A DNA stretch of 64,000 nt, from the IMG/VR virus record IMGVR_UViG_3300045988_174665, one strand, 5' to 3'. Under the pieces are notes generated by a model that had not been told where the DNA came from, made no database searches, and was given only the letters and a program-made list of their open reading frames with translations. Made by a program: the position numbers and the translations under genes. Position 1 is the stretch's first letter, and every line of letters begins with the position of its first letter. Positions 38,902 to 53,534 of the stretch are shown one piece after another. The DNA comes from a virus.

Positions 38902-38915
38902 TTCTCTTTCTCTCC

Positions 38916-39734: not shown

Positions 39735-39766
39735 TCTTTTCTCGCCTTTCTTTATTTTCTATATAT

Positions 39767-39795
39767 ATTATATAAAAAATTTTTTAAAAAAACAA
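39767..39795 (-). promoter_or_regulatory. sigma70-type promoter
   Basis: Minus sense TTGTTT-17-TATAAT. Confidence 0.5.
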
Positions 39796-39798
39796 GTT

Positions 39799-40051
39799 TT
39801 AAAAAATTACCTGATATGAAACACCATAATTAATAATTGAACAAGATAAATCAATTTTATTTTTAAAAGCTATCTTAAATACCTGACATATAGAAGGAGG
39901 GAATAAGGAAAACTCTGGTGAATACTGAATATAGACCTTAAAAAATTTCAAAAATTTTCTGCTGTTTTTTAGGAGTGACTTTAAAGCAATCACCACCAAC
40001 CTCTTGTGTGAATATGTTTTTCTTTAAAAAAATATAATCTCCTATCTTCAT
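39799..40051 (-). pseudogene. small gene interrupted by a 1-nt frameshift in a T6 run
   Basis: MKIGDYIFLKKNIFTQEVGGDCFKVTPKKQQKIFEIF | KVYIQYSPEF...YQVIF. The frames join at plus-strand A6 39940-39945. ATGA overlap with the upstream gene. Confidence 0.4.
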
Positions 40052-40920: not shown

Positions 40921-40949
40921 TTTTTCGCCCCTTTTTATTTTCTATATAT

Positions 40950-40978
40950 ATTATATAAAAAATTTTTTAAAAAAGCAA
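40950..40978 (-). promoter_or_regulatory. sigma70-type promoter
   Basis: Minus sense TTGCTT-17-TATAAT. Confidence 0.55.
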
Positions 40979-40979
40979 A

Positions 40980-41001
40980 AAAAGAGAGGTTAACCTCTCT
41001 T
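40980..41001. terminator. hairpin terminator
   Basis: AAAGAGAGG-TTAA-CCTCTCTTT. Confidence 0.55.
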
Positions 41002-42194
41002 TAATCGTGATGCTTAAGCAGATATTCTCTCGAAACATTTTTAAAGCTAAAATCAGTCTTTGGATTTCTCAATACAATTCCCTCTCTATATACAGAAGGA
41101 TTAACAACCGACTTCGCAGTCGCAACTTTCTTAAATTCGTCCAAATCTTTAGGAAGCTTATAATGAGCATCGAGAATTGGGACAAATTTCATTCCCATTT
41201 CATTTACCACCAATTGTGCCTCAGTAGAAGGTACTCTACCTCTGTCTGAACGAATAAAATTAAAGATGTATAAATCATCTTCTTTGAGCTTCAAAGGATT
41301 ACCTTGAACGCTGCCTACAGATTCGCCTTGAACACAAACATAATCAAGCTCAGGATTCTGTTTTAAATATGTTTCAAGTTGCTCTCTAATATGGTATTTA
41401 AAAGCCATATCCCAATAAATGTTATGGTCGTGATAGCAATTTTGTTTCTCATCTTTCTGTCTTATATTTCGAGAAAGAACATAAAATTCAAACTTATTTC
41501 TTCTCTTCTTTTTTCTTTCAAGAATATAAGTTGAAGAAGTACCGTCCAACTTCTCAGTTACAATCCAATCATCCTCATTATTAAGAATAAAGGGAATGTT
41601 CTCAACTCTCTCTTCGTCGGTTTTATGAATATAAGGGAAGTGAGTTGGAAAAGCCTTTGGACTATCTTTCTTTTTGCCCAAAAAGACAAAGAGAAGTTTT
41701 CTACCCCACTCCCTCTTCATAAGCCAACGGAATGGCTTCTTTTTCATAATATTTTTATGTCTTGCCGCCATTGACATATATTTAATATCTTTAGCTTTGT
41801 TAGCCTTACGAATATTATCATCTTGAGAAATATAAGTTACTCCAAGCTTCTGTCCAACATCAGAATGAAGTGGTAAATCTTTAAATTCTGGAAAAGCAGA
41901 CAGCGGCATTAGAAGTCCTTGTGAAATAACTTTACACATTCTTTGAGTCTTTACTTTAAAATTACGCTTTGCCATAAAAGTAAATCTCTCATCGTTGTCA
42001 GGAACTTTTGAGTCAATTTCAAAGTAAATACCTTTCTTTTTAGTTTCGTCATTAGGGTCAAAGTCGCCCTTTCCTACTACGCAATGCCAGCCACCAACAG
42101 TTGCTAATTCAACCCTATCGTAACCTTCCAATGGAGTGACCTTATCAACCTCTACAATATAAGCTAACATTCTCTCGCCTTTTTCGTTTAACAT
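41001..42194 (-). CDS. ATP-dependent RNA ligase (DRB0094-like)
   Basis: N-terminal OB-like AYIVEVDKVTPLEGYDRVELATVGGWHCVV; adenylyltransferase motif I TEKLDGTS. Confidence 0.8.
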   Translation of the reverse strand: MLNEKGERMLAYIVEVDKVTPLEGYDRVELATVGGWHCVVGKGDFDPNDETKKKGIYFEIDSKVPDNDERFTFMAKRNFKVKTQRMCKVISQGLLMPLSAFPEFKDLPLHSDVGQKLGVTYISQDDNIRKANKAKDIKYMSMAARHKNIMKKKPFRWLMKREWGRKLLFVFLGKKKDSPKAFPTHFPYIHKTDEERVENIPFILNNEDDWIVTEKLDGTSSTYILERKKKRRNKFEFYVLSRNIRQKDEKQNCYHDHNIYWDMAFKYHIREQLETYLKQNPELDYVCVQGESVGSVQGNPLKLKEDDLYIFNFIRSDRGRVPSTEAQLVVNEMGMKFVPILDAHYKLPKDLDEFKKVATAKSVVNPSVYREGIVLRNPKTDFSFKNVSREYLLKHHD

Positions 42195-42460
42195 TATACA
42201 TCATCCTTCCATTTTTTCGTTCTCATTTCAATAATATAATCTATTACTTTTTCATATTCTGTTTCTGTTAAAGAAAGTAGTGGCACGACTGTCTTATCAA
42301 AATTTGAAAAACCCGCCATTTTCATAAAGTCATTAACAAATTCTCCGATTACCCTATAGGTATCAATTCCCAATTCGGGGTATGTATCTCTTGATACTCT
42401 ACTCACTGTTTTAGAACCAATCTCATTGGTATTTTCATAGCTCATTTTTAACTTAATCAT
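42194..42460 (-). CDS. hypothetical protein
   Basis: ORF track. Confidence 0.45.
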   Translation of the reverse strand: MIKLKMSYENTNEIGSKTVSRVSRDTYPELGIDTYRVIGEFVNDFMKMAGFSNFDKTVVPLLSLTETEYEKVIDYIIEMRTKKWKDDV

Positions 42461-42698
42461 TTTTATAATCCTCCAACTTAACGAGTTTTAAAACTCGATA
42501 GACCTCGGGAGGTACAAAACCAAGTTTTTGCAAATCTTCATCCTTTTCTATTTGGTGGTATACAGAAATTCCATCTTCAAGAAAAACAATACTATCTCCT
42601 ACAATAAGTTCTGACCAATTAACAGCGTCACTTAATTCAAATAACTGACCGTCAATTTTTAAAACTATATTATCAAACTTTATTGGTCTGGTTATCAT
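42453..42698 (-). CDS. hypothetical protein
   Basis: Start moved to MITRPIK because the ORF-track N-terminus overlaps the promoter. Confidence 0.45.
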   Translation of the reverse strand: MITRPIKFDNIVLKIDGQLFELSDAVNWSELIVGDSIVFLEDGISVYHQIEKDEDLQKLGFVPPEVYRVLKLVKLEDYKND

Positions 42699-42729
42699 TT
42701 TAAAACTCCTTTTCTTATTTTCTATAAAT

Positions 42730-42758
42730 ATTATATAGAATTTTTTTAAAAAAAGCAA
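42730..42758 (-). promoter_or_regulatory. sigma70-type promoter
   Basis: Minus sense TTGCTT-17-TATAAT. Confidence 0.55.
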
Positions 42759-42759
42759 A

Positions 42760-44412
42760 TTATAAATATTGTTTAATTAACTCAGAAAAGTTTCTTAAAA
42801 AATGAATCGAAATGGTGTCTTTTTGTAGGGCCGCTGTTCGCTGTATATCCCAAGCATTTTTAATGCCTGCCTGAGATTGCTGCGTTGGATAAAGTATTTC
42901 TGGAGTTGTAATAGTAACTCGAACCAATTTAGATAAATTTTTTTCTTTTGTATAATCTGTAATTGCCCGATAAATTAAATATAAGAAAAAGGACAAGGGA
43001 ATTAATATACCGTTCAAGTTCATAATGTGAATAGCATTTGTGGTTGTTTCTTTAAAATCTCCAATAGAAGAGGCATCGTCAAATAATAAATATGCCACAT
43101 CCTGAGCTAATAAACGGCTTAAATCTTCTTTATAATTTTCTTGATTACCAATTGCCCCTTTTCCTAATTGTAAAATTGCTCCAACCACATAAACAAAATT
43201 TTTATCTATATTAGAGAAAATTTCTTTAAAAGAATCCATTTTAATAGCTGTGCCGGCGGAGTAACCTCTCTTAGAAAAGTTTTCATTTAAGGTATATAAT
43301 TTAGAAGAACTATAAACAATAAAGCCATTATTAATTTTATCTAATCTCTGTCTTAAAATTTCAAATGCTCTATTATTATCCACATAATTACCTAAAGAGT
43401 TTTCTTTTGTAATTTTTTCTATAGCGTCTTTATCTATACCATAAGTATAAATATTATCCGCTTTAATCTTTTTCTCTCCAGAACCAATTCCTTCAATTTT
43501 GTATCCTTGATTTTTATTGTTTTGTAACATAAAGATGAAGTTTTCCAAAAATTCTTGTTCTAAACCGCCTTGACCAGCCGCTGTCTGCATAGCAACTTTG
43601 TTCTTTCTAGTGTTACCCAAAATCGCCTGTTTACAACTCATTAAGCTAACTCCTCTTTTACTTTTACTTTCTTTAATTCTCTTTTTAATTGAATTTTTAA
43701 TTTTATCAACTTGATACACTTGGCACATATTCCGCACGAAGGGGTTGGTGGCAGCCTTGCCTCTATATTTTTCTAAAGCTTCTACAACTTCGGCATAAGC
43801 GTTAGAATAATCTTTCCCAGTTTTATTTAATCCATTTTCTTGATTAGCACTGAATTGTAAAATTAAAGCTTCTTGTACAATTTCTGGCATTACCTCGTCA
43901 ATTACATTTTCAATTGCTGAATTAATTTTTACTCCTTTTTTAATTTGACTAATAATTTTTCGAGAAATTTTTCCCTCATATTTATCCCAAACCTTACCAA
44001 AATAAGTGCCAAAAAAGGCAGTAACTGTTTTTTGTCCCTTGGTATTCTTTATTAAGGCTACATTTCTTTCATAAACTTTTTTTAAGTTCATCGTTTCATT
44101 AAGAAGCTCAATTATTTTCTTTGCTCCATCTGCGGAGGCTGTCGAATCTTTTACTCCCCTTCCTACATTAATACCATAAACTTTTCTTAAAAGGGCTTTT
44201 TCTTTCTTTTCTTCATTTTGAGCTAGTCTTAATAATTGCTTGGCAGCGGTGACGTCTTCTGAACCCAGAGCATTTCTGAATTTACCACCGTCCCTCAAAT
44301 TTCTTTTAATTGTATCGTAAGTTTTTCTATAAGTCGGTCCACTGTCTTTTAATCTTTCGTAAAAAACATACATACTAGACAAAGAGCGACTTTGTATGTC
44401 TAAAGCTGGCAT
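42760..44412 (-). CDS. large hypothetical protein
   Basis: ORF track, 550 aa, GGAGG RBS; no motif recognised. Confidence 0.55.
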   Translation of the reverse strand: MPALDIQSRSLSSMYVFYERLKDSGPTYRKTYDTIKRNLRDGGKFRNALGSEDVTAAKQLLRLAQNEEKKEKALLRKVYGINVGRGVKDSTASADGAKKIIELLNETMNLKKVYERNVALIKNTKGQKTVTAFFGTYFGKVWDKYEGKISRKIISQIKKGVKINSAIENVIDEVMPEIVQEALILQFSANQENGLNKTGKDYSNAYAEVVEALEKYRGKAATNPFVRNMCQVYQVDKIKNSIKKRIKESKSKRGVSLMSCKQAILGNTRKNKVAMQTAAGQGGLEQEFLENFIFMLQNNKNQGYKIEGIGSGEKKIKADNIYTYGIDKDAIEKITKENSLGNYVDNNRAFEILRQRLDKINNGFIVYSSSKLYTLNENFSKRGYSAGTAIKMDSFKEIFSNIDKNFVYVVGAILQLGKGAIGNQENYKEDLSRLLAQDVAYLLFDDASSIGDFKETTTNAIHIMNLNGILIPLSFFLYLIYRAITDYTKEKNLSKLVRVTITTPEILYPTQQSQAGIKNAWDIQRTAALQKDTISIHFLRNFSELIKQYL

Positions 44413-44423
44413 AATTCCTCCTA

Positions 44424-44450
44424 TAAAAAAAGAGCGTTATTCACGCTCTT
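44424..44450 (-). terminator. intrinsic terminator
   Basis: AAGAGCG-loop-CGCTCTT hairpin followed by T7 in the minus sense. Confidence 0.6.
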
Positions 44451-44481
44451 ATGTATATAAAACAGCCTCTATTGAAGCCGA

Positions 44482-45243
44482 TTAGGACAATTGTACAACC
44501 TCGTCCAGTAATAAAGTCATATTGGAAGTTAATGGTTGGTTTGCGTGGAAATGCCCACAATACCAATGTGTGAAAGTAATTTTATCATAAACCTCTTCTA
44601 AAAATTCTTCCATAGAAGTATCCGCTTCTCCATAATTAAAAGGAAGAAATAATTCTGTGGGTTCATATTTAAGTGGACAAGTATGACTAAAAATATAATC
44701 ATATGAGTTATTTTTTGAAATAATTTCAAAAATTTCCTTTTTCTTCTCTTCATCCATTTGTTCATCGGGATACCAATATCCCCTTTTATGAACTACTCTC
44801 CAATATTTATCAATTGAATACGCCCCACCAAGTACAAGACACTTTTTCCCTAAAATTGTAATTACTCCATCATCAGGGAATAAAATATTAGAATACTTTT
44901 TTTCTACCCAACAATTACATTTTAAATCTCCTCTACATTGAATTTTTTGATAAGAAGGAATATGCTCGGGGCGGCAATCGTGATTACCTTGAATACAAAT
45001 TAAAGTAATTGGTAAATTACTAATTTTTTGCTTAATCTTTTCTCTATAAGACTTACTTTTATCTATAAGAGGCTCTCCCCATTTTAAACCAGTATTCATT
45101 TCATCATAAATATATCCATAATTGATTCCAGTATCACCCAAAAGAATTAAATAATCTTCTTTAGTGGTATTATTTTCCCTGCAAAATTGAGGTAAAAAGC
45201 CAAACTGACCGTGAGTATCCCCTCTTACAAAAATTCTTCCCAT
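44482..45243 (-). CDS. Ser/Thr-phosphatase-type metallophosphoesterase
   Basis: GDTHGQ, LGDTG, GNHD and GHFH motifs. Start moved to MGRIFVRGD because the ORF-track N-terminus overlaps tRNA-Gln. Confidence 0.8.
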   Translation of the reverse strand: MGRIFVRGDTHGQFGFLPQFCRENNTTKEDYLILLGDTGINYGYIYDEMNTGLKWGEPLIDKSKSYREKIKQKISNLPITLICIQGNHDCRPEHIPSYQKIQCRGDLKCNCWVEKKYSNILFPDDGVITILGKKCLVLGGAYSIDKYWRVVHKRGYWYPDEQMDEEKKKEIFEIISKNNSYDYIFSHTCPLKYEPTELFLPFNYGEADTSMEEFLEEVYDKITFTHWYCGHFHANQPLTSNMTLLLDEVVQLS

Positions 45244-45261
45244 TCCTTTCTCCTCTCTTAT

Positions 45262-45285
45262 ATACAAAAATCCCTTATAAAGGGA
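45262..45285 (-). terminator. terminator at the end of the tRNA island
   Basis: TCCCTT-TAT-AAGGGA hairpin followed by T5 in the minus sense. Confidence 0.5.
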
Positions 45286-45288
45286 ACT

Positions 45289-45363
45289 TGGCAGCGGAGA
45301 AGAGAATCGAACTCCTACCCGTTGGGTCAAAGCCAACTGTACTAACCGTTATACTACTCCGCT
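45289..45363 (-). tRNA. tRNA-Gln(TTG)
   Basis: Full cloverleaf, anticodon loop CTTTGAC, GGAGTTCGATTCTC T-arm, encoded CCA. Confidence 0.85.
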
Positions 45364-45999
45364 ATATTTAATTTAATAACTTATTTTAGCCATATAAAGA
45401 CCTTCGCCTTACTTTGATTTAGTTTTCTTCTATATTCAGCCACTAAGAAAACATACTTGAGCCTTGGGGAGCTACCCCAAAACGATATGCCCTATACCTC
45501 TTTAGAGGCAACTAAGCTTAGAAGGGAATGATTACCCTTAACTTTCACCCACCATCCAAAAAATATAATATCTTTTTAACATAAAAGGTATTTTCATCAT
45601 TGTTTTTCTATTTACGGTATTGAGCTACTCGCACATTAAACTTGCCTTATAGTTAAGTTACCTTAACATCACTACCACACCCCTTATTTGAGTTACTAAG
45701 GTTTGCTAATTTCTCAGGTTAGCCTAACTTAGCTTATTCTTTCACTGAAAGCGTCTATTACGGAGCGGACAAGAATTTGCCTTTAAAAGCAACTAATCAA
45801 GCACATCTTTCCCACCAAGAAGACCCGTCTTTTATCTCCGCCCTTATTAGGTCACCCTAATAAGTTCTCGTTGATTTAAAGTATCCTTAAAATCCTTACT
45901 AATTGGAATTATTGGAAAGATTCTCGGCACGATGGCATTCGTCTTCACCGAGGTTTATATGATTAAAATAAACTATTAAATTTTCAAGGTACAATTAAA
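45364..45999 (-). ncRNA. 636-nt ORF-free structured spacer (candidate large ncRNA)
   Basis: No ORF in either strand. Many local helices: TTGGGG/CCCCAA, CTTATTAG/CTAATAAG, AAGGG/CCCTT, CTCGG/CCGAG, GTTAAG/CTTAAC. Visibly richer in G+C than the flanking DNA. Confidence 0.35.
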
Positions 46000-46073
46000 T
46001 GGAGTGGATAAAGGGAATCGAACCCTCATCCTCGGTTTGGAAGACCAATGTTTTACCATTAAACTATATCCAC
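46000..46073 (-). tRNA. tRNA-Gly(TCC)
   Basis: Cloverleaf, anticodon loop CTTCCAA, U73, CCA. Confidence 0.85.
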
Positions 46074-46109
46074 ATTTATTACCTTAAATTTTATAAGGCA
46101 AAATAAATT

Positions 46110-46349
46110 TTAATCTTCTTTAATCTCTGGCTCAATAATAATAAAATCTCTTATCTTCATCCAGATATCATTTTCACTTTCTACCCACAGCTCATTAAAT
46201 TCAAGAGCGTGCAAAGCACCTAAAACAGATTTTGCATTAACACAAAAACCATTACTATCCTTTACCACGATTTTACCCTCAAGCTGTGAAGTAATATGAG
46301 CAAAATTAATTGCATCACTTGAAGTATCTAATCTAATCTTTGCTCTCAT
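46110..46349 (-). CDS. HPr-like domain protein lacking the catalytic His
   Basis: ...VNAKSVLGALHALEF... matches the HPr vnaKSimglmsLg core. The GLHARPA site is replaced by TSSDAINFA. Confidence 0.4.
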   Translation of the reverse strand: MRAKIRLDTSSDAINFAHITSQLEGKIVVKDSNGFCVNAKSVLGALHALEFNELWVESENDIWMKIRDFIIIEPEIKED

Positions 46350-46384
46350 TTTTTTTATCCTTCCTTTCTTAACTTTCTATAAAT

Positions 46385-46413
46385 ATTATATAGAAATTTT
46401 AAAAGATTTTCAA
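46385..46413 (-). promoter_or_regulatory. internal promoter
   Basis: Minus sense TTGAAA-17-TATAAT. Confidence 0.55.
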
Positions 46414-46417
46414 ATTT

Positions 46418-46494
46418 TGGTGCTCTTGAAAGGATTCGAACCTTCACTTGATAGAGCCTAAATCTATTGCCTCTTCCAATTGGGCTACAAGAGC
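46418..46494 (-). tRNA. tRNA with anticodon TAG (Leu codon CUA) but a short variable loop
   Basis: GCTCTTG/CAAGAGC acceptor, stem ATAGA/TCTAT, loop TTTAGGC, 5-nt variable loop CAAGT, A73, CCA. Confidence 0.7.
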
Positions 46495-46615
46495 ATATAA
46501 AGCTTTTAATTAAGCGAATACATTTTTCAGTATTACTTTAAATGCGGAGGCTATCAAATCTCACTTCCCTCACATACTTAATTTGGCGATTTGACCTAAC
46601 CATAAGCTTTTTTAA

Positions 46616-46689
46616 TGGAGATACTATTTGGAATTGAACCAAAAATCAAGCTTTTGCAGAGCCTTGCCTTACCATTTGGCTATAGTATC
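46616..46689 (-). tRNA. tRNA-Cys(GCA)
   Basis: Anticodon loop CTGCAAA, U73, CCA. Confidence 0.85.
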
Positions 46690-46692
46690 ATA

Positions 46693-46768
46693 TGGAGCTT
46701 CTAGTCAGATTCGAACTGACGGTCTTTGGATTACTAAACCAATGCTTTACCAACTAAGCTACAGAAGC
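46693..46768 (-). tRNA. tRNA with anticodon AGT (Thr-like) and a U31-U39 mismatch
   Basis: 76 nt in standard register; loop TTAGTAA gives A34-G35-U36. Confidence 0.6.
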
Positions 46769-46953
46769 ATAATCTTATTGTCTAGACTTTGACCACACTT
46801 AATGTTTGGATAAGATACTCAAACTTGGGTTTACCTATATCGTCGCTCCCTCAAACCACGGAGTATTTTTCGATTATACTCAACGCCTTCTTTCATCGCC
46901 CAAATATGGCAGGTATTTATTCCATTATTATAATTTTAAAATTATAATATAAT

Positions 46954-47037
46954 TGGTAGGAGAGGATGGATTCGAACCATCGAAGCGAAACGCAACAGAT
47001 TTACAGTCTGCCCCTTTTACCACTCAGGAACTCTCCT
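46954..47037 (-). tRNA. tRNA-Tyr(GTA)
   Basis: Loop CTGTAAA, long variable arm GCG-TTT-CGC, A73, CCA. Confidence 0.85.
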
Positions 47038-47113
47038 TGGTGTGCCATCGGAGATTCGAACTCCGGACTTCTTGATTAAAAGTCAAGTATTCTACCAACT
47101 GAATTAATGGCAC
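47038..47113 (-). tRNA. tRNA-Lys(TTT)
   Basis: Loop CTTTTAA, perfect cloverleaf, abuts tRNA-Tyr. Confidence 0.9.
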
Positions 47114-47252
47114 AAATTTAATAAGAATGACACTCTTTGCTTGTATATTCGCAATGACCATCTCATTCTTATCTTTAAATTACTTAAAACCAGAGGGTGA
47201 CAATCCTCATTTCCATAAAGGCGATAGATGCCCGTTCTATCCTTGGTTTTAA

Positions 47253-47329
47253 TGGTGCTCTTAGATAGGATTGAACTATCAACCTCTCACTTATAAGGTG
47301 AGTGCTCTAACCAACTGAGCTATAAGAGC
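47253..47329 (-). tRNA. tRNA-Ile(TAT)
   Basis: Stem CTCAC/GTGAG, loop CTTATAA, A73, CCA. Confidence 0.8.
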
Positions 47330-47637
47330 ATTTAAACTAAATAAGACGCATCTTATTTAGTTAGGCTTTATCCGCAGAATCAGCCGCAATTCATCATTTT
47401 AGTCTTACAAACCCACTTACTAAGACTTGCTTTGATTTCGTTCAAAGGTTTTTCTAAAGCGGTTACGCCAATTTTTTAAAATTGGAAAAACTAATTAAAT
47501 TAATTAGACAGAGAATCTTCTCTTTTTTAAGAATAGATATAATACTGGTAATTTACATCCGCTTTTAGTTATTTCTTCTTTTAAAGAAATCCCTTCAATT
47601 ACAGTCCTATTGCGGCAAGGGCTAACAGTATTTTTAG

Positions 47638-47705
47638 GGGAAGCAACGAGGCTTGAACTCGTACCAATCCTAGGAATTATTCTAACCAATTGAAACTATA
47701 CTTCC
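47638..47705 (-). ncRNA. 68-nt tRNA-like RNA with a 13-nt mini anticodon arm
   Basis: Acceptor GGAAGTA/TGCTTCC, D-arm with AATTGGTTA loop, T-arm ACGAG-TTCAAGC-CTCGT. Only AATTC-CTA-GGATT sits where the anticodon arm should be. No encoded CCA. Confidence 0.5.
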
Positions 47706-47734
47706 CTTAACAGTCAACTTAATCATTGACTTAA

Positions 47735-47810
47735 TGGCTCTTACAGCAGGACTCGAACCTGCAACTCTCTGATTAACAGTCAGATGCTCTACCGATTGAA
47801 CTATGTAAGA
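47735..47810 (-). tRNA. tRNA-Asn(GTT)
   Basis: Loop CTGTTAA, U1-A72, G73, CCA. Confidence 0.9.
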
Positions 47811-48192
47811 ATATTTAAAGGTGCAGGGATAGCCTAACCCCACATCGAGCAGGAAAACACCAAGAATTTTTCTGCTCATTGTTTAAGCATCCCGACCAGT
47901 TTCTCGGTAACTGCGGCCAAGGCTTCCTTTTCGTTATATCCCGTTAGTAGAAACCATCAATTTTTCTTCTAAGGCAGATAACTCCAGTACTGCACTAACT
48001 TCTGGATATACGTTCAAGCAAGTATCACTTACCAAGTTTAACGACATTGACAAGTCGGCTAGATTAGATATAGAATTTTAATCTATACCCTACATATGGG
48101 AAGGACAATGACCTGGCTGTTTTTACTCTATAGGTTTCAGCCTAACTATTAGAGTAAGGAATCTCATCTTTCTGAGGCGTCACATTGTCCTC
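47811..48192 (-). ncRNA. 382-nt ORF-free structured spacer (candidate ncRNA)
   Basis: Long nested helices in the minus sense, e.g. GGACAATG..AC / GT..CATTGTCC, TTACTCTA.TAG / CTATAGAGTAA, TATAGA/TCTATA. Confidence 0.35.
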
Positions 48193-48273
48193 TGGAGCAG
48201 ATGAAGAGAATCGAACTCCTGCTATCAGTTTCAGTTCGGAGAACTGATGTACTAACCACTATACTACATCTGC
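48193..48273 (-). tRNA. aberrant tRNA (loop TCTCCGA, C33; 10-nt variable region)
   Basis: Good acceptor, D- and T-arms (body paralogous to tRNA-Gln). Anticodon stem TCAGT/ACTGA, with the ACTGA strand duplicated. Confidence 0.55.
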
Positions 48274-48285
48274 ATATAAGATAAT

Positions 48286-48361
48286 TGGCTGTTCATTGGA
48301 GATTCGAACTCCAGACCACCGTGTACACCAGTAGCTCTTCCTAACTGAGACTTAATGAACA
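48286..48361 (-). tRNA. aberrant tRNA-like gene without a regular anticodon arm
   Basis: TGTTCAT/ATGAACA acceptor, G73, CCA, T-arm TGGAG-TTCGAAT-CTCCA. The central ACTGGTGTACACGGTGG gives only a weak TACTG/CGGTG stem with loop GTGTACA. Confidence 0.5.
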
Positions 48362-48729
48362 ATATATTATAAATACTAGATTCAGATAAGCAAGACTTTA
48401 CAAATCTCTAGAATATCCGTGAAATAATCGTTATGTCTGCAGAACATATAATTATTTCATCCTACTTATCTGGTAAGCTTTCTTGGGCGAGATGAACTTA
48501 CTAACTCTACCTTAGAATAAAAATAGCATCTAACATCATTTTATCCCTCTATAGAGATTTACTTAAATTTTAGTTATACAAGCAGCCCGTGTTTACCGTT
48601 ACACTAACAACCGCATATATTGCCTTGCTTGTGATATAAGCTCTGCAAAGCATAGAGTTTGTATCGTACCACTCAATCCCTTATTTATTCGCTTTATTTT
48701 AGGTATCTAATAATTGCGATTAGATTTAC

Positions 48730-48820
48730 TGGCGGCGAGGGTGAGATTCGAACTCACACACCTCTTTCCAGCTACTAACAGTTTAGCAAACTGCTTCCTT
48801 ACCATTAGGATTACCTCGCC
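48730..48820 (-). tRNA. tRNA-Ser(GCT)
   Basis: Loop TTGCTAA, long variable arm, G73, CCA. Confidence 0.9.
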
Positions 48821-48822
48821 AT

Positions 48823-48950
48823 ATGGCTAGAGTGGTTGGACTCGAACCAACTTATATTCGGAAATTTAAAGTTCTTATAATATAGATTAAAAGTCTATTC
48901 CTAATGGGTAGAAGGATGAACCTCAACAGCCGAATATTTATTTAACTTAC
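48823..48950 (-). ncRNA. signature hairpin RNA unit A (followed by an orphan T-arm and ..GCCA tail)
   Basis: P1 ATATTCGG/CCGAATAT, GGCU, UUCAUCCUUCUA, then GTTGG-TTCGAGT-CCAAC-CACTCTAGCCA. Own promoter upstream. Confidence 0.5.
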
Positions 48951-48957
48951 ATTAAAT

Positions 48958-48986
48958 ATTATAGCATATATTTTATTATTTGTCAA
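48958..48986 (-). promoter_or_regulatory. internal promoter for unit A
   Basis: Minus sense TTGACA-17-TATAAT with an extended TGC. Confidence 0.6.
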
Positions 48987-49014
48987 ATATTTTTTATTAT
49001 TTAAAATTTGTTCG

Positions 49015-49148
49015 ATGCGGTAATTTTAACATCTACATAATACTATTGCACTACCAACTGTGCTACATCCCGCTTTAATGGGATGGTGGGAATCGAACCC
49101 ACATCACATAGTCCCCTGATATAGAAGGATGATGTTAGTCAGCCGCAT
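49015..49148 (-). ncRNA. signature hairpin RNA unit B carrying a permuted tRNA-like domain (YrlA-like architecture)
   Basis: P1 ATGCGG/CCGCAT and P2 TAACATC/GATGTTA, with GGCU and AUCAUCCUUCUA. The inner module at 49042-49112 has a T-arm, a capped 6-bp acceptor helix, U8-A9 and a D-arm with GG, closed by ACTAT/ATAGT. Confidence 0.6.
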
Positions 49149-49197
49149 ATTTTTTATATTGTGGAAATTTGTTTCTCTAAAATCTTAATCCCAAATC

Positions 49198-49240
49198 AAG
49201 TGCTTGTTAGCGTAGAAGGATGAAAAACAATAGCCACTTT
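49198..49240 (-). ncRNA. signature hairpin RNA unit C
   Basis: AAGTG/CACTT and UGUU/AACA helices; loop UUUCAUCCUUCUACGCU. Confidence 0.45.
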
Positions 49241-49250
49241 GAGAAAGAGA

Positions 49251-49313
49251 TGTGGGAATTTAATGCTCTTTTAAAACCGTTTATTATATAGAAGGATGAG
49301 CATTACAGCCACA
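49251..49313 (-). ncRNA. signature hairpin RNA unit D
   Basis: P1 TGTGG/CCACA, P2 TAATGCTC/GAGCATTA; the loop starts AUCCUUCUA. Confidence 0.5.
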
Positions 49314-49324
49314 AATTATAAATA

Positions 49325-49418
49325 GTGGAAATCGGACTTTCTATCTTATTATTATGGAGGTGGCTAAACCACCGAAATTCTTTTTTTTTCTTAGAAGGAA
49401 GAAAGTCCATAGCCACAA
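49325..49418 (-). ncRNA. signature hairpin RNA unit E
   Basis: P1 GTGG/CCAC, P2 GGACTTTCT/AGAAAGTCC, variant UUCCUUCUA, inner hairpin GGTGG-TTTAG-CCACC. Confidence 0.5.
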
Positions 49419-49440
49419 TAACTTCATTTTATTTCACAAA

Positions 49441-51720
49441 TTATAACAAAGCAAATAGTTCATCGGTATCAAAAGCTGTGACAATCGGAACTTCTGGCTT
49501 TTCCTTTATAACGGGTTTTGTGGTACCCGTAACCTCGTCAAACTCTTTTGCAATTTCATAAGGTACTGTTGTATCATTACTAAAAATGATATCCGCTTCA
49601 TTTCTATTTGTAACAATACTACCTCTTGCAATAGCGTTCATCATTACAAGGTCATAAATATTTGCCTTATTAAGATGTGTTAAACCATAGCAGGTTGCAG
49701 TTACACCCTGTAAATTACTTTCAAGATTATTGCCATAAAACCTCGGACTTCCATTCTGAAGGTTCATATCACACCAGATGAACTTACGCTCAACACAATC
49801 AAATATAACAGGTATAGCAACAGTACTATCAGCAGTTAAGTCAATCTTCATTTCAACTGTTTTCGGCTCGAATATCTCACCGCTATTTACATCTTCTCTT
49901 TCCATCCATCCGAAACGGCAATTGGGAAGCGTAGAAAAATGCTGTCGTGTAAAACTATAAACCTGAAATGCAATGTATCTACCAGCGTTTTTAGCAACTG
50001 CATCAATGTCCACATCAATAAACTCTGCTACACCATCACCGTTAATATTTCCGCCATTGGTAATGTCACCCGAATGATATGCTCTATATTTTGCAGAGCG
50101 AAGTTGTGTATATGATACACGGTCAACATACTGCCAATTTTCGTCATAAATGGTTGCAGAAAGGTCAATATCAACCCTGTCTTCACCCCAACCATTTCTC
50201 GCCTTATCGGTATTAGTCCACCAGATAAAACCACGAACAGCTGTAGCGTCTTTCTTAATGGGCAACTTACTACCACGAACAATGGTCTTAACAGCCTTAC
50301 TTGCACTTCTCTGACTAAACGGAACAAGATAATTTTTGAAATCCTCATCAATATAAACTTTTCCGAGGAAATCTTTTTCCTTATACTGTTCAATTAAAGC
50401 ATCACGGCAAATCGTTGCAATATTGTTACATACATTGCTATTGATTTTAGGAAGTTCATTTTTGATAACCATAGCTTTTGCAAGATTTCCCTTAGGAAAG
50501 AATACTCTTACAGGCTGATTATCATTCTCCATTCTTCCTATAAAATGCTGTCTTACCTGAAGAAGTACAGGAGTTGAAATTTTTGTTGCAACTTCTTTAA
50601 AACAGTTGACAATATAATTCGGATTATCTGCATCACGAATAAGTTTATCAAGTTGTCTTGCAAACTCTCCCGGTCTTGCCTTTAACAAGGTAGCGGCTTC
50701 ACGCATATCTTTTGCGGTAATTGCTGCCTGAACCTTTCCCGCAAACATAAGAGGCTTTTTCTCATTTCTTAAAGTATTAAATGCAGCGTTAACATTATGA
50801 TACTTTGCTTTTTTATATTCAAACGGATGAAGAATTTCTGCTACTCTAATCCATTCATACTGATAACGGAACAAATCCTCTGTTATATTACTACAACCAG
50901 CAAGCAAATCCATAATCATACGGCGTTCAACCCTACGAAGGTTTCTGTATTTAGTCCTTGAAGCAAGACTAATGTCGCCATTAGAAAGTGCTGTTACAAG
51001 TCGTAAAACATCTGTTGTAGTCTTGAAATATTTACTTATTGAATCAGCACTTTTGATTGGTGCTTTTTCAATAATAAGCTTTCCAATAAATGCAACATTC
51101 TCTTTAAGAGGAATTGTATTAGGAAGATATGTAGTATAATCGGGACAAGCAAGAATAATAGCTTCAATGTCCTCTTTATCCTGCTCCGAAATTGATGTCT
51201 TACTCTCAACAAGATTTGTGAAAATAGTCATCAAATCATCGTGACTTCCCATTGACAAAACAGTCATTTTATTGTCATCAATAAGTGGGAAACGCTCATC
51301 TTTTTCGTATTCGGGAATTAATGTACCAAATGACCAGTAATGAACGATTGCATTAACAAACAACTCGATATCACTTGCTTCTGCAACCTGCTGCGGGAAG
51401 TTCGGATACATTGGATTATATGTAACATCCGCACCAACAAGTTCTTTAAGTGCAGGAATAAGGGAACTATAAAAAGCAATAAAATTATCTCTTGTAAGAT
51501 GGAATACTTTTTCAAGAAGTTCCCTTGAAAATGTAAAGCCAAGAGCCTGAATATTTTTCAAGCCAGAAATAACAAGTGCCTTTTCTGCCTTATCCTGCTC
51601 ATAAGTCATATCGGCACTGCCAAAGTTAATCGTTACGAAATTGGCGGCAGGTTCAAACATTACCAAATGCTTACGGCGTAACAAAATCTTATCAAGTTCT
51701 GTTAATTTGAAATTCTTCAT
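49441..51720 (-). CDS. 759-aa protein: helical N-terminal domain (possible distant TROVE/Ro60-like) plus C-terminal TerD-like domain
   Basis: The C-terminus reads ...DIDLSATIYDENW..VSY......YRAYHSGDITNGG..GDGVAEFIDVDIDAV....RYIAFQVYSF, matching the TerD pattern (DLD...hSGDn.tG.gdgDdE.i.vdL). N-terminal strings INFGSADMTY, TKYRNLRRVERRMIMDLL...ILHP and FARQLDKLIR are colinear with TROVE landmarks as I recall them. Confidence 0.6.
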   Translation of the reverse strand: MKNFKLTELDKILLRRKHLVMFEPAANFVTINFGSADMTYEQDKAEKALVISGLKNIQALGFTFSRELLEKVFHLTRDNFIAFYSSLIPALKELVGADVTYNPMYPNFPQQVAEASDIELFVNAIVHYWSFGTLIPEYEKDERFPLIDDNKMTVLSMGSHDDLMTIFTNLVESKTSISEQDKEDIEAIILACPDYTTYLPNTIPLKENVAFIGKLIIEKAPIKSADSISKYFKTTTDVLRLVTALSNGDISLASRTKYRNLRRVERRMIMDLLAGCSNITEDLFRYQYEWIRVAEILHPFEYKKAKYHNVNAAFNTLRNEKKPLMFAGKVQAAITAKDMREAATLLKARPGEFARQLDKLIRDADNPNYIVNCFKEVATKISTPVLLQVRQHFIGRMENDNQPVRVFFPKGNLAKAMVIKNELPKINSNVCNNIATICRDALIEQYKEKDFLGKVYIDEDFKNYLVPFSQRSASKAVKTIVRGSKLPIKKDATAVRGFIWWTNTDKARNGWGEDRVDIDLSATIYDENWQYVDRVSYTQLRSAKYRAYHSGDITNGGNINGDGVAEFIDVDIDAVAKNAGRYIAFQVYSFTRQHFSTLPNCRFGWMEREDVNSGEIFEPKTVEMKIDLTADSTVAIPVIFDCVERKFIWCDMNLQNGSPRFYGNNLESNLQGVTATCYGLTHLNKANIYDLVMMNAIARGSIVTNRNEADIIFSNDTTVPYEIAKEFDEVTGTTKPVIKEKPEVPIVTAFDTDELFALL

Positions 51721-51748
51721 TATAATTAATCTCCTTTATTTTAATTTG

Positions 51749-51820
51749 TCGGTAATAATTGAAACTATTTTTAAGACTTAAATTTTCTTTTTATAGAAGG
51801 AAGTTTCAATATAGCCGTTA
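51749..51820 (-). ncRNA. signature hairpin RNA unit F (in the 5' leader of the 759-aa ORF)
   Basis: GGCU, P2 ATTGAAACT/AGTTTCAAT, variant CUUCCUUCUA. Ends about 12 nt before the ORF's RBS. Confidence 0.45.
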
Positions 51821-51897
51821 GGAAAAATTGATGGGAATTTTACACTCTATTCTTATAGCAAAAAGTTTTAGAAGGATGAATATTTTCAGCCACCAAC
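51821..51897 (-). ncRNA. signature hairpin RNA unit G
   Basis: TTGGTGG/CCATCAA pairing, GGCU, UUCAUCCUUCUA. Confidence 0.45.
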
Positions 51898-51940
51898 TTG
51901 AATGAAGGTTGAGTTATTGTCATTATACCTACAATATGAC

Positions 51941-52017
51941 TGGTAACACCGCCGAGGCTCGAACTCGGAATATTCGCCGTGAAAGAGCGATGTGTTAGCC
52001 AATTCCACTACGGTGTC
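51941..52017 (-). tRNA. tRNA-Glu(TTC)
   Basis: Loop CTTTCAC, G1-U72 wobble, A73, CCA. Confidence 0.8.
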
Positions 52018-52020
52018 ATA

Positions 52021-52096
52021 TGGAGCTGGTGGACGGACTTGAACCCTCAACCTACTGATTACAAATCAGTTACTCTACCAATTGAGCTACACCAGC
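52021..52096 (-). tRNA. tRNA-Thr(TGT)
   Basis: Loop TTTGTAA, U73, CCA; one T-stem mismatch. Confidence 0.85.
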
Positions 52097-52308
52097 ATAT
52101 ATGTTATCTGGATTACCCTAGTTCCTAACTTTTTAAACCCTCACGAGTTTAAACAAATGCACGATAACAATACATTTAGAGATTCTTAATAATAACGCAG
52201 CTCTCTCCCTCACTACGAATAGTTTTTCGTTAGCTATTAACGCATAGCTTATCGTTCGCTACGGACGCCTTCTTTTTCTTGGGTAAAGCGGGCAGGAATA
52301 TTTCCCGA

Positions 52309-52383
52309 TGGGTGCGGAGAAGGGATTCGAACCCTTAACCTTCAGAATATGAGTCTGCTGAGCTACCGTTGCTCCACTCCGCA
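52309..52383 (-). tRNA. tRNA with anticodon CAT (elongator Met or Ile2-type)
   Basis: Loop CTCATAT. The anticodon stem GCAGA/TCTGA lacks the three G-C pairs typical of an initiator. Confidence 0.8.
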
Positions 52384-52604
52384 ATATCTTCCCTCATCCA
52401 GTTCCTAGGTAGAGGGAATTTTCATAAAAAAATACGGTTTCTTTGCCTTTAAGACATAGTTGTAAATAGGTTTACCGAAAACCCCTCAGCACCTCCACAT
52501 CAACTCATACAACGAAGAAGAATGCTTCAACGATGGCGTTACAAGGATAAAATACTTGCCTTGTATATCTTCCCTTATCTAATTCTTAGATAGAAGGGAA
52601 AGCG

Positions 52605-52675
52605 TTTTTTAGAAGATAAACTTCTCGGACGCAATATTCGCCCTGTTTTTTTAGAAGATAAACTTCTCGGACGCA
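52605..52675. repeat. direct repeat, 2 x ~29 nt
   Basis: TTTTTTAGAAGATAAACTTCTCGGACGCA at 52605 and 52646; each contains an AGAAG-ATAAA-CTTCT hairpin. Confidence 0.7.
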
Positions 52676-52717
52676 CACTCGCCGCTTTTGCTAAAACTTA
52701 AACCTAAGAAGATATAA

Positions 52718-52840
52718 TTAGGTTTTATTCAAAAGACGAATTCGTCTTTCAAGTTTCTTAATGATACGAGCATTTGCTACCGCATCTCGTGACTTGAGTT
52801 TATGAATACGATTTGAATAATAAAGTTTAGTTCTTGTCAT
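52718..52840 (-). CDS. 40-aa basic peptide candidate
   Basis: MTRTKLYYSNRIHKLKSRDAVANARIIKKLERRIRLLNKT with a GAAAGGAAG RBS; below the ORF-track cut-off. Confidence 0.35.
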   Translation of the reverse strand: MTRTKLYYSNRIHKLKSRDAVANARIIKKLERRIRLLNKT

Positions 52841-52863
52841 AAAATCTTCCTTTCATTTTAAAT

Positions 52864-52938
52864 TGGTACAAGAGAAGAGATTCGAACTCTTAGCTACAAA
52901 GTCCCAAACTTTGCCGTCTACCATTGACTTACTCCTGT
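52864..52938 (-). tRNA. tRNA-Pro(TGG)
   Basis: Loop TTTGGGA, A73, CCA. Confidence 0.85.
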
Positions 52939-53014
52939 ATATGTGAGGATTGCTTTCGTTATTTTATTCAGCGTTCACATAAAGATTACCCTCTAATCCA
53001 AAACTTAACGCTTC

Positions 53015-53090
53015 TGGTGGGACAAGAGGGATTCGAACCCTCACTAAATGGATTTTAAGTCCATTGCCTCTGCCGTTGGGCTACTGTCCC
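53015..53090 (-). tRNA. tRNA with anticodon TAA (Leu codon UUA) but a short variable loop
   Basis: GGGACAG/TTGTCCC acceptor, stem ATGGA/TCCAT, loop CTTAAAA, 5-nt variable loop TTAGT, A73, CCA. The D-arm GCCC..GAGGC is shared with 46418..46494. Confidence 0.7.
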
Positions 53091-53480: not shown

Positions 53481-53488
53481 CTATAAAT

Positions 53489-53517
53489 ATTATATCATAT
53501 TTTTAATTAAAAGTCAA
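53489..53517 (-). promoter_or_regulatory. promoter of the tRNA/ncRNA island
   Basis: Minus sense TTGACT-17-TATAAT. Confidence 0.65.
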
Positions 53518-53534
53518 AATTTTTATTTCTAAAT

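Follow-up and report, generated by a model that had tools for sequence, protein, structure and literature searches.

What is a large protein gene doing in the middle of a tRNA island, and how is it related to the hairpin RNAs that surround it? This question is raised by a 759-aa ORF in the window, the 64-kb stretch of viral DNA that was analysed here. The ORF and its surroundings are as follows:

49441..51720, minus strand: 759-aa ORF with an ATG start, comprising a helical N-terminal region, a TerD-type domain and a small C-terminal domain
45289..53090, minus strand: tRNA/ncRNA island with 16 tRNAs, all on the minus strand
45379-45976: ROOL RNA, in the island
47185-47251: skipping-rope RNA, in the island
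52430-52535: drum-like RNA, in the island (sub-threshold match)
37975..45336, minus strand: adjacent RNA-repair-type genes, five ORFs listed below
37975-38901, minus strand: P-loop kinase AAA_33
40048-40920, minus strand: RlaP nucleotidyltransferase
41001-42194, minus strand: RNA ligase
42760-44412, minus strand: 550-aa ORF without assignment
44482-45336, minus strand: Metallophos phosphoesterase

Bar an internal out-of-frame ORF, no other ORF between 45336 and 54036 reaches 120 aa, which bears out the claim of a first-pass annotation that the 759-aa protein gene is the only large ORF within a tRNA/ncRNA operon. That annotation had proposed a TROVE-like ring, as in Ro60, fused to TerD and surrounded by Y-RNA-like genes. 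The strings it quoted are all found in the protein: FGSADMTY at residues 33-40, KYRNLRRVERRMIMDLL...LHP at 257-299 and RQLDKLIR at 355-362, as well as DIDLSA, YHSGDITNGG and GDGVAEFIDVDIDAV.

An AlphaFold2 model of the 759-aa protein (pLDDT 84.4, pTM 0.76) has three parts, which are mainly helical, all-beta and small alpha/beta, respectively:

50311..51720, minus strand: N-terminal helical region, residues ~1-470 (AlphaFold2 model), with Arg-rich conserved motifs
49741..50283, minus strand: TerD-type beta-sandwich, residues ~480-660 (Foldseek, family profile, conserved residues)
49444..49728, minus strand: C-terminal alpha/beta domain, residues ~665-759 (AlphaFold2 model)

The N-terminal ~480 aa had been described as helical, and residues ~1-470 are mostly so in the model. 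This region carries the conserved motifs YPNFPxQV, KTATDVLRL, TKFR..R..RR, W.R..E.LHP, RPGxFARRLDxLLR and FPKG, and we propose it as the RNA-binding part. When the full model was compared to the PDB with Foldseek, the single significant match was TerD 2kxt (E 2.3e-5, probability 1.00, TM 0.68 on the target over 178 columns). A family profile aligned to 2kxt at the DxDLS and SGD...G..E.ID.D motifs (E 0.08), and within the domain D517 and S550-G551-D552 are invariant, with E566 and D569 near-invariant. Pfam TerD (PF02342) matched four of 39 relatives, with a best E of 5e-6, and left the window protein itself unmatched. As modelled, residues ~480-660 thus show a TerD fold. The earlier assignment of the C-terminal ~230 aa to TerD was right about the type of fold but not about its extent: the TerD-like part spans only ~180 aa and is followed by an extra C-terminal domain, so the last 230 aa are not TerD as a whole. 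The protein has the beta-sandwich and the Ca-binding-type DxDxS...SGD...G..E.ID.D motifs in common with TerD of the ter system (PF02342; Klebsiella TerD, PDB 2kxt). In contrast to that system, TerD is here one domain within a protein of ~700-860 aa, and the ter-operon neighbours are missing, as no other ter genes were found in any locus examined.

The window protein belongs to a widespread, uncharacterised family of bacteria and phages, with homologs in 2862 clusters at 50% identity (E ≤ 1e-3). It matches PHROG 33734 over its full length (E 6e-95, residues 26-721 on profile positions 10-745 of 764). NCBIfam NF041916, the MXAN_6230/SCO0854 family RING domain-containing protein, was matched at 408 bits against a cutoff of 600 bits (E 6e-122), with the best-scoring stretch at profile positions 388-762. 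A helical and TerD core is common to all of these, whereas the N-terminal RING domain of the NF041916 family is absent from the window protein; according to Pfam, Prok-RING_4 is carried by five of 39 relatives. Like the window protein, a Streptomyces RING member of NF041916 has an RNA unit upstream. A literature search found no description of a function or RNA link for NF041916 or PHROG 33734, and nothing relevant on SCO0854/MXAN_6230, TerD with Prok-RING, the loop motif sequence of the RNAs, or TerD with Y RNA. The defence-system models of PADLOC-DB 2.0 did not match the window protein, P0151 or P0134.

Around the ORF we identified seven RNA units of ~60-135 nt, all on the minus strand and at most 600 nt from the ORF ends. 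The GGCU...UCAUCCUUCUA hairpin RNAs of the first-pass annotation are therefore real. Bit scores below are those of a covariance model trained on 16 units:

51830..51894, minus strand: W1, upstream of the ORF; 47.2 bits
51748..51819, minus strand: W2, upstream of the ORF, with loop motif CUUCCUUCUA; 39.5 bits
49323..49418, minus strand: W3, ~23 nt past the stop codon, outside the training set; 44.1 bits, E 1.4e-8
49250..49314, minus strand: W4; 54.7 bits
49159..49239, minus strand: W5, ortholog of unit A6 of locus L005; 60.9 bits
49015..49148, minus strand: W6, with the family stems, the loop motif and an inserted permuted tRNA-like module; partial match, 22.4 bits
48958..48986, minus strand: sigma-70-type promoter TTGACA-17-TATAAT, 12/12 matches, with TG; ~22 nt upstream of W7
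48856..48935, minus strand: W7, between this consensus promoter and tRNA-Ser; 68.8 bits

Every match of the model in the 64-kb window falls at 48856-49418 or 51747-51895. The tRNA-like module of W6 (49044-49110) is made up of a T arm, a closed acceptor-like stem and a D arm. The MFE of W6 is −40.8 kcal/mol as delimited and −41.3 kcal/mol (z −2.5) for the slightly longer 49008-49150. W7 has an MFE of −17.3 kcal/mol as delimited, and the slightly longer 48854-48937 has a z of −3.0. Since W7 has its own consensus promoter, it is presumably transcribed independently of the ORF mRNA.

Folded individually, 36 units from eight phages have one common architecture. Stem 1 closes with G-G/C-C pairs and is followed by an asymmetric internal loop, a stem 2 of 7-9 bp that covaries and differs in sequence in every copy, and a large loop. 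At the start of this loop is a conserved, single-stranded motif, (C)AUCCUUCUA, and the remainder is variable. Both stems were recovered by RNAalifold on an unfitted MAFFT alignment, with compensatory changes in seven of nine pairs, and in 135 distinct new matches 97.9% of cells were paired, compared to 57.6% after shuffling and 38-52% after sliding. Covariation in the stems, where G-U pairs are tolerated, contrasts with a loop motif that does not vary. At the level of sequence covariation, these results establish the predicted RNA structure. Arrays contain up to eight units, some of them with tRNA-like modules, interleaved with tRNAs. No family in Rfam 15 corresponds to these units, and they constitute a family of small structured RNAs that had not been catalogued before. 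The loop motif was also considered as a mimic of the 16S 3' end (anti-SD). This was dropped as a general explanation because distant phages have UACUUCUA or GCUUUCAU, which are without the CCUCC core.

Related loci were sought with a 10-sequence protein alignment. The covariance model yielded 210 matches in 69 of 80 viral loci encoding homologs (35-91% identity). All of these matches were on the gene strand and none inside the gene; 186 were within 600 nt of it. Of the 210 matches, 120 were upstream and 90 downstream. As many of the IMG/VR loci are near-duplicates, the 80 loci represent fewer than 80 independent observations. In bacterial genomes, 74 of 80 loci contained 156 matches, again all on the gene strand. 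The model had no match in 11 viral loci, six genome loci and phage SCTP-2. Locus L116 has one marginal upstream match of 19 bits. Units were recognised by eye in the distant phages Weasels2, RcXuper, XacN1, Xoo-sp13, WXIN and LpeD, whose proteins are 22-32% identical. They also adjoin the Streptomyces RING-bearing member and other bacterial members, and in Pleionea the unit is encoded on the strand opposite the gene. In a reciprocal test, all ten IMG/VR loci with at least three motif copies encode the protein. The stored stretches of about 11 phage loci contain one or two good units and lack a family ORF. An exact DNA-pattern scan of IMG/VR, which is informative at multi-copy loci only, gave mostly single matches without a nearby family gene, which probably arise by chance in so large a collection. 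Among the bacterial gene neighbours we searched for a conserved partner protein and found none. As the neighbours are otherwise not conserved, it is the gene with its RNAs that moves as a unit. The link between gene and hairpin RNAs, for which a neighbourhood survey had been suggested, is thus a family-wide rule in phages and bacteria.

The setting noted for the window is also found elsewhere: a tRNA island recurs at 51 of the 80 viral homolog loci, where all 212 tRNAs are on the gene strand. Among RNA-repair-type genes, RlaP also occurs in RcXuper and Xoo-sp13 (Pfam), RtcB in Weasels2, and Thg1 and PTH2 in L005. In XacN1, a nucleotidyltransferase is present by annotation.

The known system that these loci most invite comparison with is Ro60/Rsr and its Y RNAs (YrlA/YrlB, Yrn1). 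Y RNAs supply Ro60 with a target or effector contact, rsr-yrlBA-rtcBA is an RNA-repair operon, and phage Ro-like proteins exist. Both systems have a large protein with a helical N-terminal region, of repeats in Ro60, and a different C-terminal domain, whose gene adjoins one or several same-strand small RNAs. A terminal stem, an internal loop, a second stem and a large loop are common to the Y RNAs and the window units. An association with RNA ligase, RtcB and RlaP genes and, in phages, with tRNA genes is shared as well. In some RNAs of the window family, the permuted tRNA-like module (T arm, closed acceptor, D arm) aligns to Rfam YrlA (RF02553). W6 scores 37 bits on model positions 23-85 of 114, and matching modules were also found in RcXuper, L103, L017, L023, L072 and L078. 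These matches score 34-44 bits, under the gathering score of 69, and most span positions 23-85 only. Without an Rfam match, the same module was recognised by eye or MFE fold in Weasels2 unit K3 and L005 units A7 and A9. The notion of Y-RNA-like genes near the ORF is supported by W6, the one unit that holds the tRNA-like module of YrlA Y RNAs. Differences from Ro60/Y RNA are equally clear. Whereas Ro60/Rsr has TROVE and vWA domains, the window family has neither signal by Pfam or hhalign and carries TerD in its C-terminal part; its arrays contain as many as eight units, and bacterial members can bear an N-terminal RING. The Rsr-binding motif of Y RNAs is GNCGAAN0-1G (PMC4201824), while the window units have GG/CC-closed stems and the AUCCUUCUA loop, and their 5' strand reads GGCUR... 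rather than GNCGAA.

Because the gene is nearly always flanked by this RNA family, some with tRNA-like modules, it probably encodes the protein half of a Ro60/Y-RNA-like ribonucleoprotein. We consider it likely that the ORF is the protein part of a two-part module, consisting of one protein and partner RNAs, that would work like Ro60/Y RNA. As an analogy, this mode of action is well supported by context, and the ribonucleoprotein would be a new one.

Whether this likeness reflects common descent depends on the helical region, for which TROVE/Ro60 homology had been suggested. At a cutoff as loose as E ≤ 10, not one of 39 family members was matched by Pfam TROVE or vWA, with positive controls Bxz1 gp220 and crAss001 gp96 matched by Pfam TROVE at 9e-50 and 5e-13. 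Searches of Pfam, NCBIfam, PADLOC and PDB sequences with the single protein returned no TROVE, vWA or defence match, and a PDB search with the family profile did not find Ro60. With hhalign, the probability was 0.2% against a phage Ro60 profile and 0.3% against the crAss001 TROVE protein. A local hhalign alignment pairs the earlier landmarks colinearly with TROVE motifs (KYR..W..LHP with KYRQRNGW..HP and RQLDKLIR with RQLxRLTR), at a score of 18.3 that equals noise: the reversed control scored 16.8, and five of 40 block shuffles scored at least as high. Structural comparison bearing on the HEAT-repeat ring of Ro60 was borderline. Foldseek with the N-terminal model ranked Ro60 1yvp_A 46th in the PDB (E 1.1, probability 0.51, TM 0.21-0.23), where among the listed matches it has one of the two highest TM values (0.23; top match 0.22) and the lowest rmsd. 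Among viral models (BFVD), the best match outside the protein's own family and outside TerD was the TROVE-domain protein of phage cr111_1 (E 1.1e-3, probability 1.00, 380 columns, TM 0.26-0.33). For the helical part of the full and N-terminal models, Foldseek against the PDB listed just non-significant alpha-solenoids (exportins, importins, cohesin SA2), with no significant fold match and no recognised RNA-binding fold. Of the proposed TROVE-TerD fusion, the TerD part is supported and the TROVE part is at noise or borderline level, and these results do not show that this is a TROVE protein.

The protein might still be a true, extremely divergent Ro60 homolog in which TerD replaced vWA, and the RNAs divergent Y RNAs. 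The Foldseek matches to cr111_1 and 1yvp_A and the colinear KYR..W..HP and RQL.[KR]L.R pairing are in line with such ancestry, as are the YrlA-type modules and the RNA-repair genes nearby. The Foldseek E-values and TM values are marginal, however, and the Pfam and hhalign searches argue against it. In addition, a C-terminal vWA/MIDAS domain is missing, with a TerD beta-sandwich in its place (39 members by Pfam; AlphaFold2 and Foldseek), and the RNAs lack the GNCGAAN0-1G motif (PMC4201824), with only YrlA positions 23-85 aligning. We regard this descent as unlikely. It concerns ancestry and is compatible with the ribonucleoprotein reading. A competing role for the RNAs is that of cis-acting leader or regulatory elements rather than trans-acting partners, through autoregulation by the protein or anti-SD-like loops sequestering the ribosome-binding site. 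Many bacteria, Paenibacillus among them, have two tandem same-strand units directly upstream of the ribosome-binding site, and by sequence reasoning AGGAGG could base-pair with the loop motif CCUUCU, so a cis-regulatory role is possible in Paenibacillus; the majority of viral matches are also upstream. Yet the remaining viral matches and the strongest matches in Niallia and Heyndrickxia are downstream, the unit of Pleionea does not share the strand of its gene, and W7 has its own promoter and runs into tRNA-Ser, which does not conform with a simple 5' leader. Considering also the long arrays with tRNA-like modules among tRNAs and the units without a nearby family gene, a purely cis-acting role seems distinctly improbable.

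Two further readings would make the RNAs incidental or deny that they act as RNAs. For stand-alone phage TerD proteins, a role in stress or superinfection exclusion has been proposed, and the window protein could likewise be a Ter-type factor that lies among tRNAs and hairpins by accident. It has the TerD fold, its relatives are named 'TerD family protein' by NCBI, and a jumbo-phage survey read phage TerD genes as Ter-system components (PMC7824862). This is very hard to reconcile with the lack of other ter genes at any locus examined, the absence of a PADLOC defence-system match, a TerD part that makes up just about a quarter of the protein, and RNA linkage at 143 of 160 loci with every match on the gene strand. 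Least credible of all is a function of the repeats as DNA, for instance as operators, REP/MITE-like repeats or recombination sites. They are indeed short, repeated and intergenic with inverted repeats, but all 366 covariance matches share the strand of the gene, covariation in the stems admits G-U pairs while the loop motif is constant, and some copies have embedded tRNA-like modules.

If the protein and RNAs form a ribonucleoprotein, the conserved stem/loop module of the units would be the putative binding site of the protein, and binding is predicted to depend on UCCUUCUA and the stems. Much like Y RNAs for Ro60, the variable module, tRNA-like or other, would determine which target or effector each particle contacts. 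Phages would express the protein-RNA module alongside tRNAs and RNA-repair enzymes, probably to survey, protect or repair tRNA-like RNAs during infection. We know of no TerD domains that bind RNA; through this one, regulation or assembly may become dependent on Ca2+. From this arrangement we infer physical contact between protein and RNAs, a function in RNA quality control or repair, and the part played by TerD. For a broader proposal, we see arguments in about equal balance: an independent, hitherto unrecognised ribonucleoprotein class, widespread in Firmicutes, Actinobacteria, Proteobacteria and their large phages, in which a helical-TerD protein, sometimes RING-fused, would bind modular 'AUCCUUCUA-loop' RNAs. 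Variable modules, including tRNA mimics, would programme its targets or enzymes, and phage arrays in tRNA/RNA-repair islands would counter host tRNA attack. The system would then resemble Ro60/Y RNA through convergence and not as a diverged copy of it.

To our knowledge, there is only one bacterial or phage system, Ro60/Y RNA, in which neighbouring small RNAs that mimic tRNAs are paired with a dedicated protein in a context of RNA repair. Our findings point to a second such pairing that differs in its protein, where TROVE is undetectable and TerD takes the place of vWA, and in its RNA recognition module. Thousands of members of the protein family bear no label beyond 'TerD family protein' or 'hypothetical'. 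If true, this reading would provide a function for a large orphan protein family and for much unannotated space in phage tRNA islands. Culturable systems include Paenibacillus and Bacillus chromosomes and the phages Weasels2, RcXuper, LpeD, XacN1 and WXIN. The finding could also shed light on the means by which phages shield or mend tRNAs that the host attacks, and on a role for TerD outside the ter operon.

The window encodes a 759-aa protein (49441..51720, minus strand, start ATG) within an island of 16 tRNA genes predicted by ARAGORN between 45289 and 53090, all 16 on the minus strand. As the first-pass annotation had noticed, this is the sole large ORF amid tRNA and ncRNA genes: between 45336 and 54036, nothing else reached 120 aa except an internal, out-of-frame ORF. 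An Rfam search of the window gave four ncRNA matches on the strand of the ORF, listed here after the RNA-repair-type cassette that lies beside the island:

37975-45336, minus strand: RNA-repair-type cassette (AAA_33 P-loop kinase, RlaP, RNA ligase with PHA02142 OB domain, Metallophos phosphoesterase)
45379-45976, minus strand: full-length ROOL RNA (RF03087, 301.6 bits), between tRNA-Gln and tRNA-Gly
47185-47251, minus strand: skipping-rope RNA (44.3 bits, threshold 36.7), adjoining tRNA-Ile
49044-49110, minus strand: sub-threshold match to YrlA (Y RNA-like)
52430-52535, minus strand: sub-threshold drum-like element (33.3 bits vs 43)

One 550-aa ORF in the cassette (42760-44412) had no Pfam match. 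Genes for CHAP endolysin, BppU, gp5-like and beta-helix proteins mark the window as phage-like, and no close relative was found among deposited phages. Smaller features were also seen on the minus strand. A weak twister-P1 ribozyme match (53341-53410; 25.7 bits vs a gathering score of 67.2) probably arose by chance. T-arm-like minihelices at 48821-48855 (GGUUCGAGUCCAACC...GCCA) and about 48290-48335 (GGAGUUCGAAUCUCC...AGCCA) sit directly upstream of tRNA-Ser and tRNA-Gly, and could represent pieces of tRNA or signals for processing. The island's upstream border (about 53485-53900) carries four copies of a promoter-like repeat (TTGAYTTT...TTCTATAATATTTATAGA), with a tiny ORF between copies, and a tandem direct repeat (two copies of GCGUCCGAGAAGUUUAUCUUCUAAAAAA, about 52610-52690) separates a small ORF from the drum-like element.

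Pfam gave no meaningful match to the single protein sequence. Its full length matched phrog_33734, a PHROG of unknown function (E 6e-95), and it matched NCBIfam NF041916, 'MXAN_6230/SCO0854 family RING domain-containing protein' (E 6e-122), at 408 bits, below the 600-bit cutoff, with the best-scoring stretch at profile positions 388-762. The family is large, comprising 2862 clusters at 50% identity with E <= 1e-3 (1453 at E <= 1e-30), and 354 relatives matching two peptide patterns were found in GTDB species representatives; no source gives a relative any name beyond 'TerD family protein' or 'hypothetical protein'. A confident AlphaFold2 model from 39 diverse relatives (pLDDT 84.4, pTM 0.76) was mostly helical over residues 1-470, in agreement with the helical N-terminal region read from the sequence, followed by an all-beta part (about 480-660) and a small alpha/beta domain (about 665-759). 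The C-terminal TerD-type domain proposed earlier was confirmed, because the sole significant Foldseek match in the PDB was Klebsiella TerD (2kxt; E 2.3e-5, TM 0.68 on target), the family profile aligned the hallmark TerD motifs to 2kxt, and Pfam TerD matched 4 of the 39 relatives. Prok-RING_4 matched five of the 39; bacterial relatives may carry an N-terminal RING domain, which the phage protein lacks. In a Streptomyces sp., the gene for a RING-bearing homolog is followed by one for an RNase_T-family exonuclease with a BRCT domain (L013 7668-8669).

The suggested likeness of the N-terminal region to TROVE/Ro60 fared less well. None of the 39 family members matched Pfam TROVE or vWA, even at E <= 10; the positive controls Bxz1 gp220 and crAss001 gp96 both matched TROVE. 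In hhalign, the family scored a probability of 0.2% against a five-member phage Ro60 profile and 0.3% against crAss001 gp96, a TROVE protein. The landmark strings themselves are present and were paired colinearly on the best path when hhalign was restricted to the helical parts of both sides: KYR...W..LHP (257-299) with TROVE FRGWG...KYRQRNGW..HP, and RQLDKLIR with RQLxRLTR. As the score of 18.3 compared with 16.8 for a reversed control and was equalled or exceeded by 5 of 40 block shuffles, this likeness is real as strings, not above noise. Judged by sequence, the region would not be TROVE.

Modelled structure gave borderline evidence. The N-terminal region alone (pLDDT 85.9) had no significant Foldseek match in the PDB; Ro60 (1yvp_A) ranked 46th at non-significant values (E 1.1, probability 0.51), with the lowest rmsd among the matches listed and a low TM of 0.23, level with the top match's 0.22. 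Among viral models, the first match outside the family and TerD was a TROVE-domain protein of phage cr111_1 (E 1.1e-3, probability 1.00, 380 columns, TM 0.26-0.33). We consider it rather unlikely that the window protein is a remote TROVE relative. In crAss001 (L099), an unannotated gap of ~900 nt (7965-8871) directly downstream of gp96 may hold Y RNA genes.

Reading the flanks by eye revealed seven units on the ORF strand, W1 and W2 upstream (51748-51894) and W3-W7 downstream (48856-49418), bearing out the hairpin RNAs proposed around the gene. The octamer TCCTTCTA occurs nine times in the window vs 3.2 expected, seven of them in these units. Folded singly, the units share one shape: a closing stem that ends in GG/CC leads through an asymmetric internal loop (CUR on the 5' side, AAAUUY on the 3' side) to a second stem, 7-9 bp long and different in sequence in each, and the large loop opens with (C)AUCCUUCUA. 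In W6 (49015-49148), a T arm, a closed acceptor-like stem and a D arm lie inside the large loop, and this tRNA-like part aligns to positions 23-85 of the Rfam YrlA model. The Rsr-binding part of that model was unmatched by W6, the Rsr-associated motif GNCGAAN0-1G (PMC4201824) is absent from the units, and no Rfam 15 family matched them. A perfect TTGACA-17-TATAAT promoter stands about 22 nt upstream of W7, which runs into tRNA-Ser. The sequence GGGAUUAAGA lies in the variable loop of W5 (49159-49239) and of A6, a unit of another phage locus (L005 7571-7650), and is the 5' internal-loop strand (GGAUUAAGA) of units in Rhodococcus phage Weasels2 (L001 9912-10275); a sub-motif, nested or shared, is one possibility.

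From an unfitted MAFFT alignment of 16 short units, RNAalifold recovered both stems, with compensatory changes in seven of nine pairs. In 135 distinct new matches, paired cells reached 97.9%, vs 57.6% when shuffled and 38-52% with the 3' partner slid, and 488 double-change cells were observed vs 141 expected, statistics that lean toward structure because the alignment was fitted to the model. Covariance model R1, built from 16 units, found such RNAs beside most homologs:

64-kb window: matches at the ORF flanks only (48856-49418 and 51747-51895, minus strand, that of the gene)
80 IMG/VR loci, homologs 35-91% identical: 210 matches (E <= 0.1) in 69 of 80 loci, all on the gene strand; near-duplicates are numerous, so the independent count is below 80
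80 bacterial genome loci, mostly Paenibacillus and Bacillus chromosomes: 156 matches in 74 of 80 loci, all on the gene strand

None of the 210 viral matches fell inside the gene, and 186 lay within 600 nt of it (120 of the 210 upstream, 90 downstream). At the bacterial genome loci, two tandem units usually stand just upstream of the gene; in Niallia and Heyndrickxia they are mainly just downstream. Units also adjoin an uncultured bacterial homolog (L007), and in Pleionea a unit lies on the strand opposite to the gene. The RING-bearing Streptomyces member has one upstream unit, seen by eye only, where R1 gave no match.

Nine units flank the gene of a 72% identical relative (L005/L006), several being one-to-one orthologs of window units and two carrying tRNA-like modules. 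Even in phages with a protein only 22-32% identical, arrays of two to five units built in this way directly adjoin the gene (Rhodococcus Weasels2, Rhodobacter RcXuper, Xanthomonas XacN1 and Xoo-sp13, Mycobacterium WXIN and Lactobacillus LpeD), with the loop motif variants UUACUUCUA, CAUACUUCUA, UUCCUUCUA and GCUUUCAU. RcXuper has a YrlA-type Rfam match, and unit K3 of Weasels2 a YrlA-type tRNA-like module (by eye and MFE fold). Salicola phage SCTP-2 was the sole individually examined phage with no units. Reciprocally, among 118 IMG/VR loci gathered by DNA pattern, the protein was encoded at 10 of 10 loci with at least three copies and at 1 of 108 single-copy loci. Good units turned up under R1 at another 14 loci. 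The gene is known from the contigs of three; at roughly 11, all of them phage loci, the stored stretch contained no family ORF:

L183 6078-6248; L188 8412-8625 (also L202, L247, L270): one or two high-scoring units
L276 10332-10550; L283; L289; L232 (also L259, L282): one or two high-scoring units

In these cases the gene may be sited on another part of the contig; alternatively, the phage may depend on a protein encoded by its host.

The tRNA-island setting pointed out in the first-pass annotation recurs and is a phage feature. tRNAs lay within 2.5 kb of the gene at 51 of 80 viral loci, with 212 of 212 on its strand, and at only 5 of 80 bacterial genome loci, all five phage-like contigs. RNA-repair genes also recur near the gene across several phages: RlaP next to or near it in RcXuper and Xoo-sp13 (Pfam), a nucleotidyltransferase at that place in XacN1 (by record annotation alone), RtcB in Weasels2, and Thg1 and PTH2 in L005. 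In RcXuper, an alpha-type (permuted) phage tmRNA (L004 3216-3652) stands directly upstream of the unit array and homolog; the record leaves 2369-4291, which spans it, unannotated. No ter genes were associated with the gene at the loci examined, and PADLOC models gave no defence match. Bacterial chromosomes showed no conserved neighbours of the gene, so it is the gene and its RNAs that travel as a unit.

What the data show is the gene-RNA linkage, the structure of the RNAs, the TerD fold and the genomic setting, and the reading they support best is a protein-RNA module. The RNAs would be expressed and bound by the protein, the conserved stem and loop part of each being the proposed recognition site, and the variable part (in some a tRNA mimic) would confer specificity, much as Y RNAs serve Ro60. 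A purely cis-regulatory role is disfavoured: some units lie downstream of the gene or on the opposite strand, arrays are interleaved with tRNAs, an independent promoter is present, and units exist without a nearby gene. The units of Paenibacillus do abut the ribosome-binding site, and there a cis-regulatory role could exist alongside the RNP role.

We file the protein-RNA module as a probable Ro60/Y-RNA-like RNP; by the membership tests it falls outside Ro60, YrlA, canonical TerD and NF041916, and we put the odds that it forms an independent class of its own at even. In the literature searched, no link between TerD proteins and Y-like RNAs was found; phage TerD genes are read as components of the Ter system in a jumbo-phage survey, where TROVE proteins are mentioned apart from them (PMC7824862). 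The embedding of the module in phage tRNA and RNA-repair islands points to a role, during infection, in monitoring, protecting or repairing tRNA or RNA.
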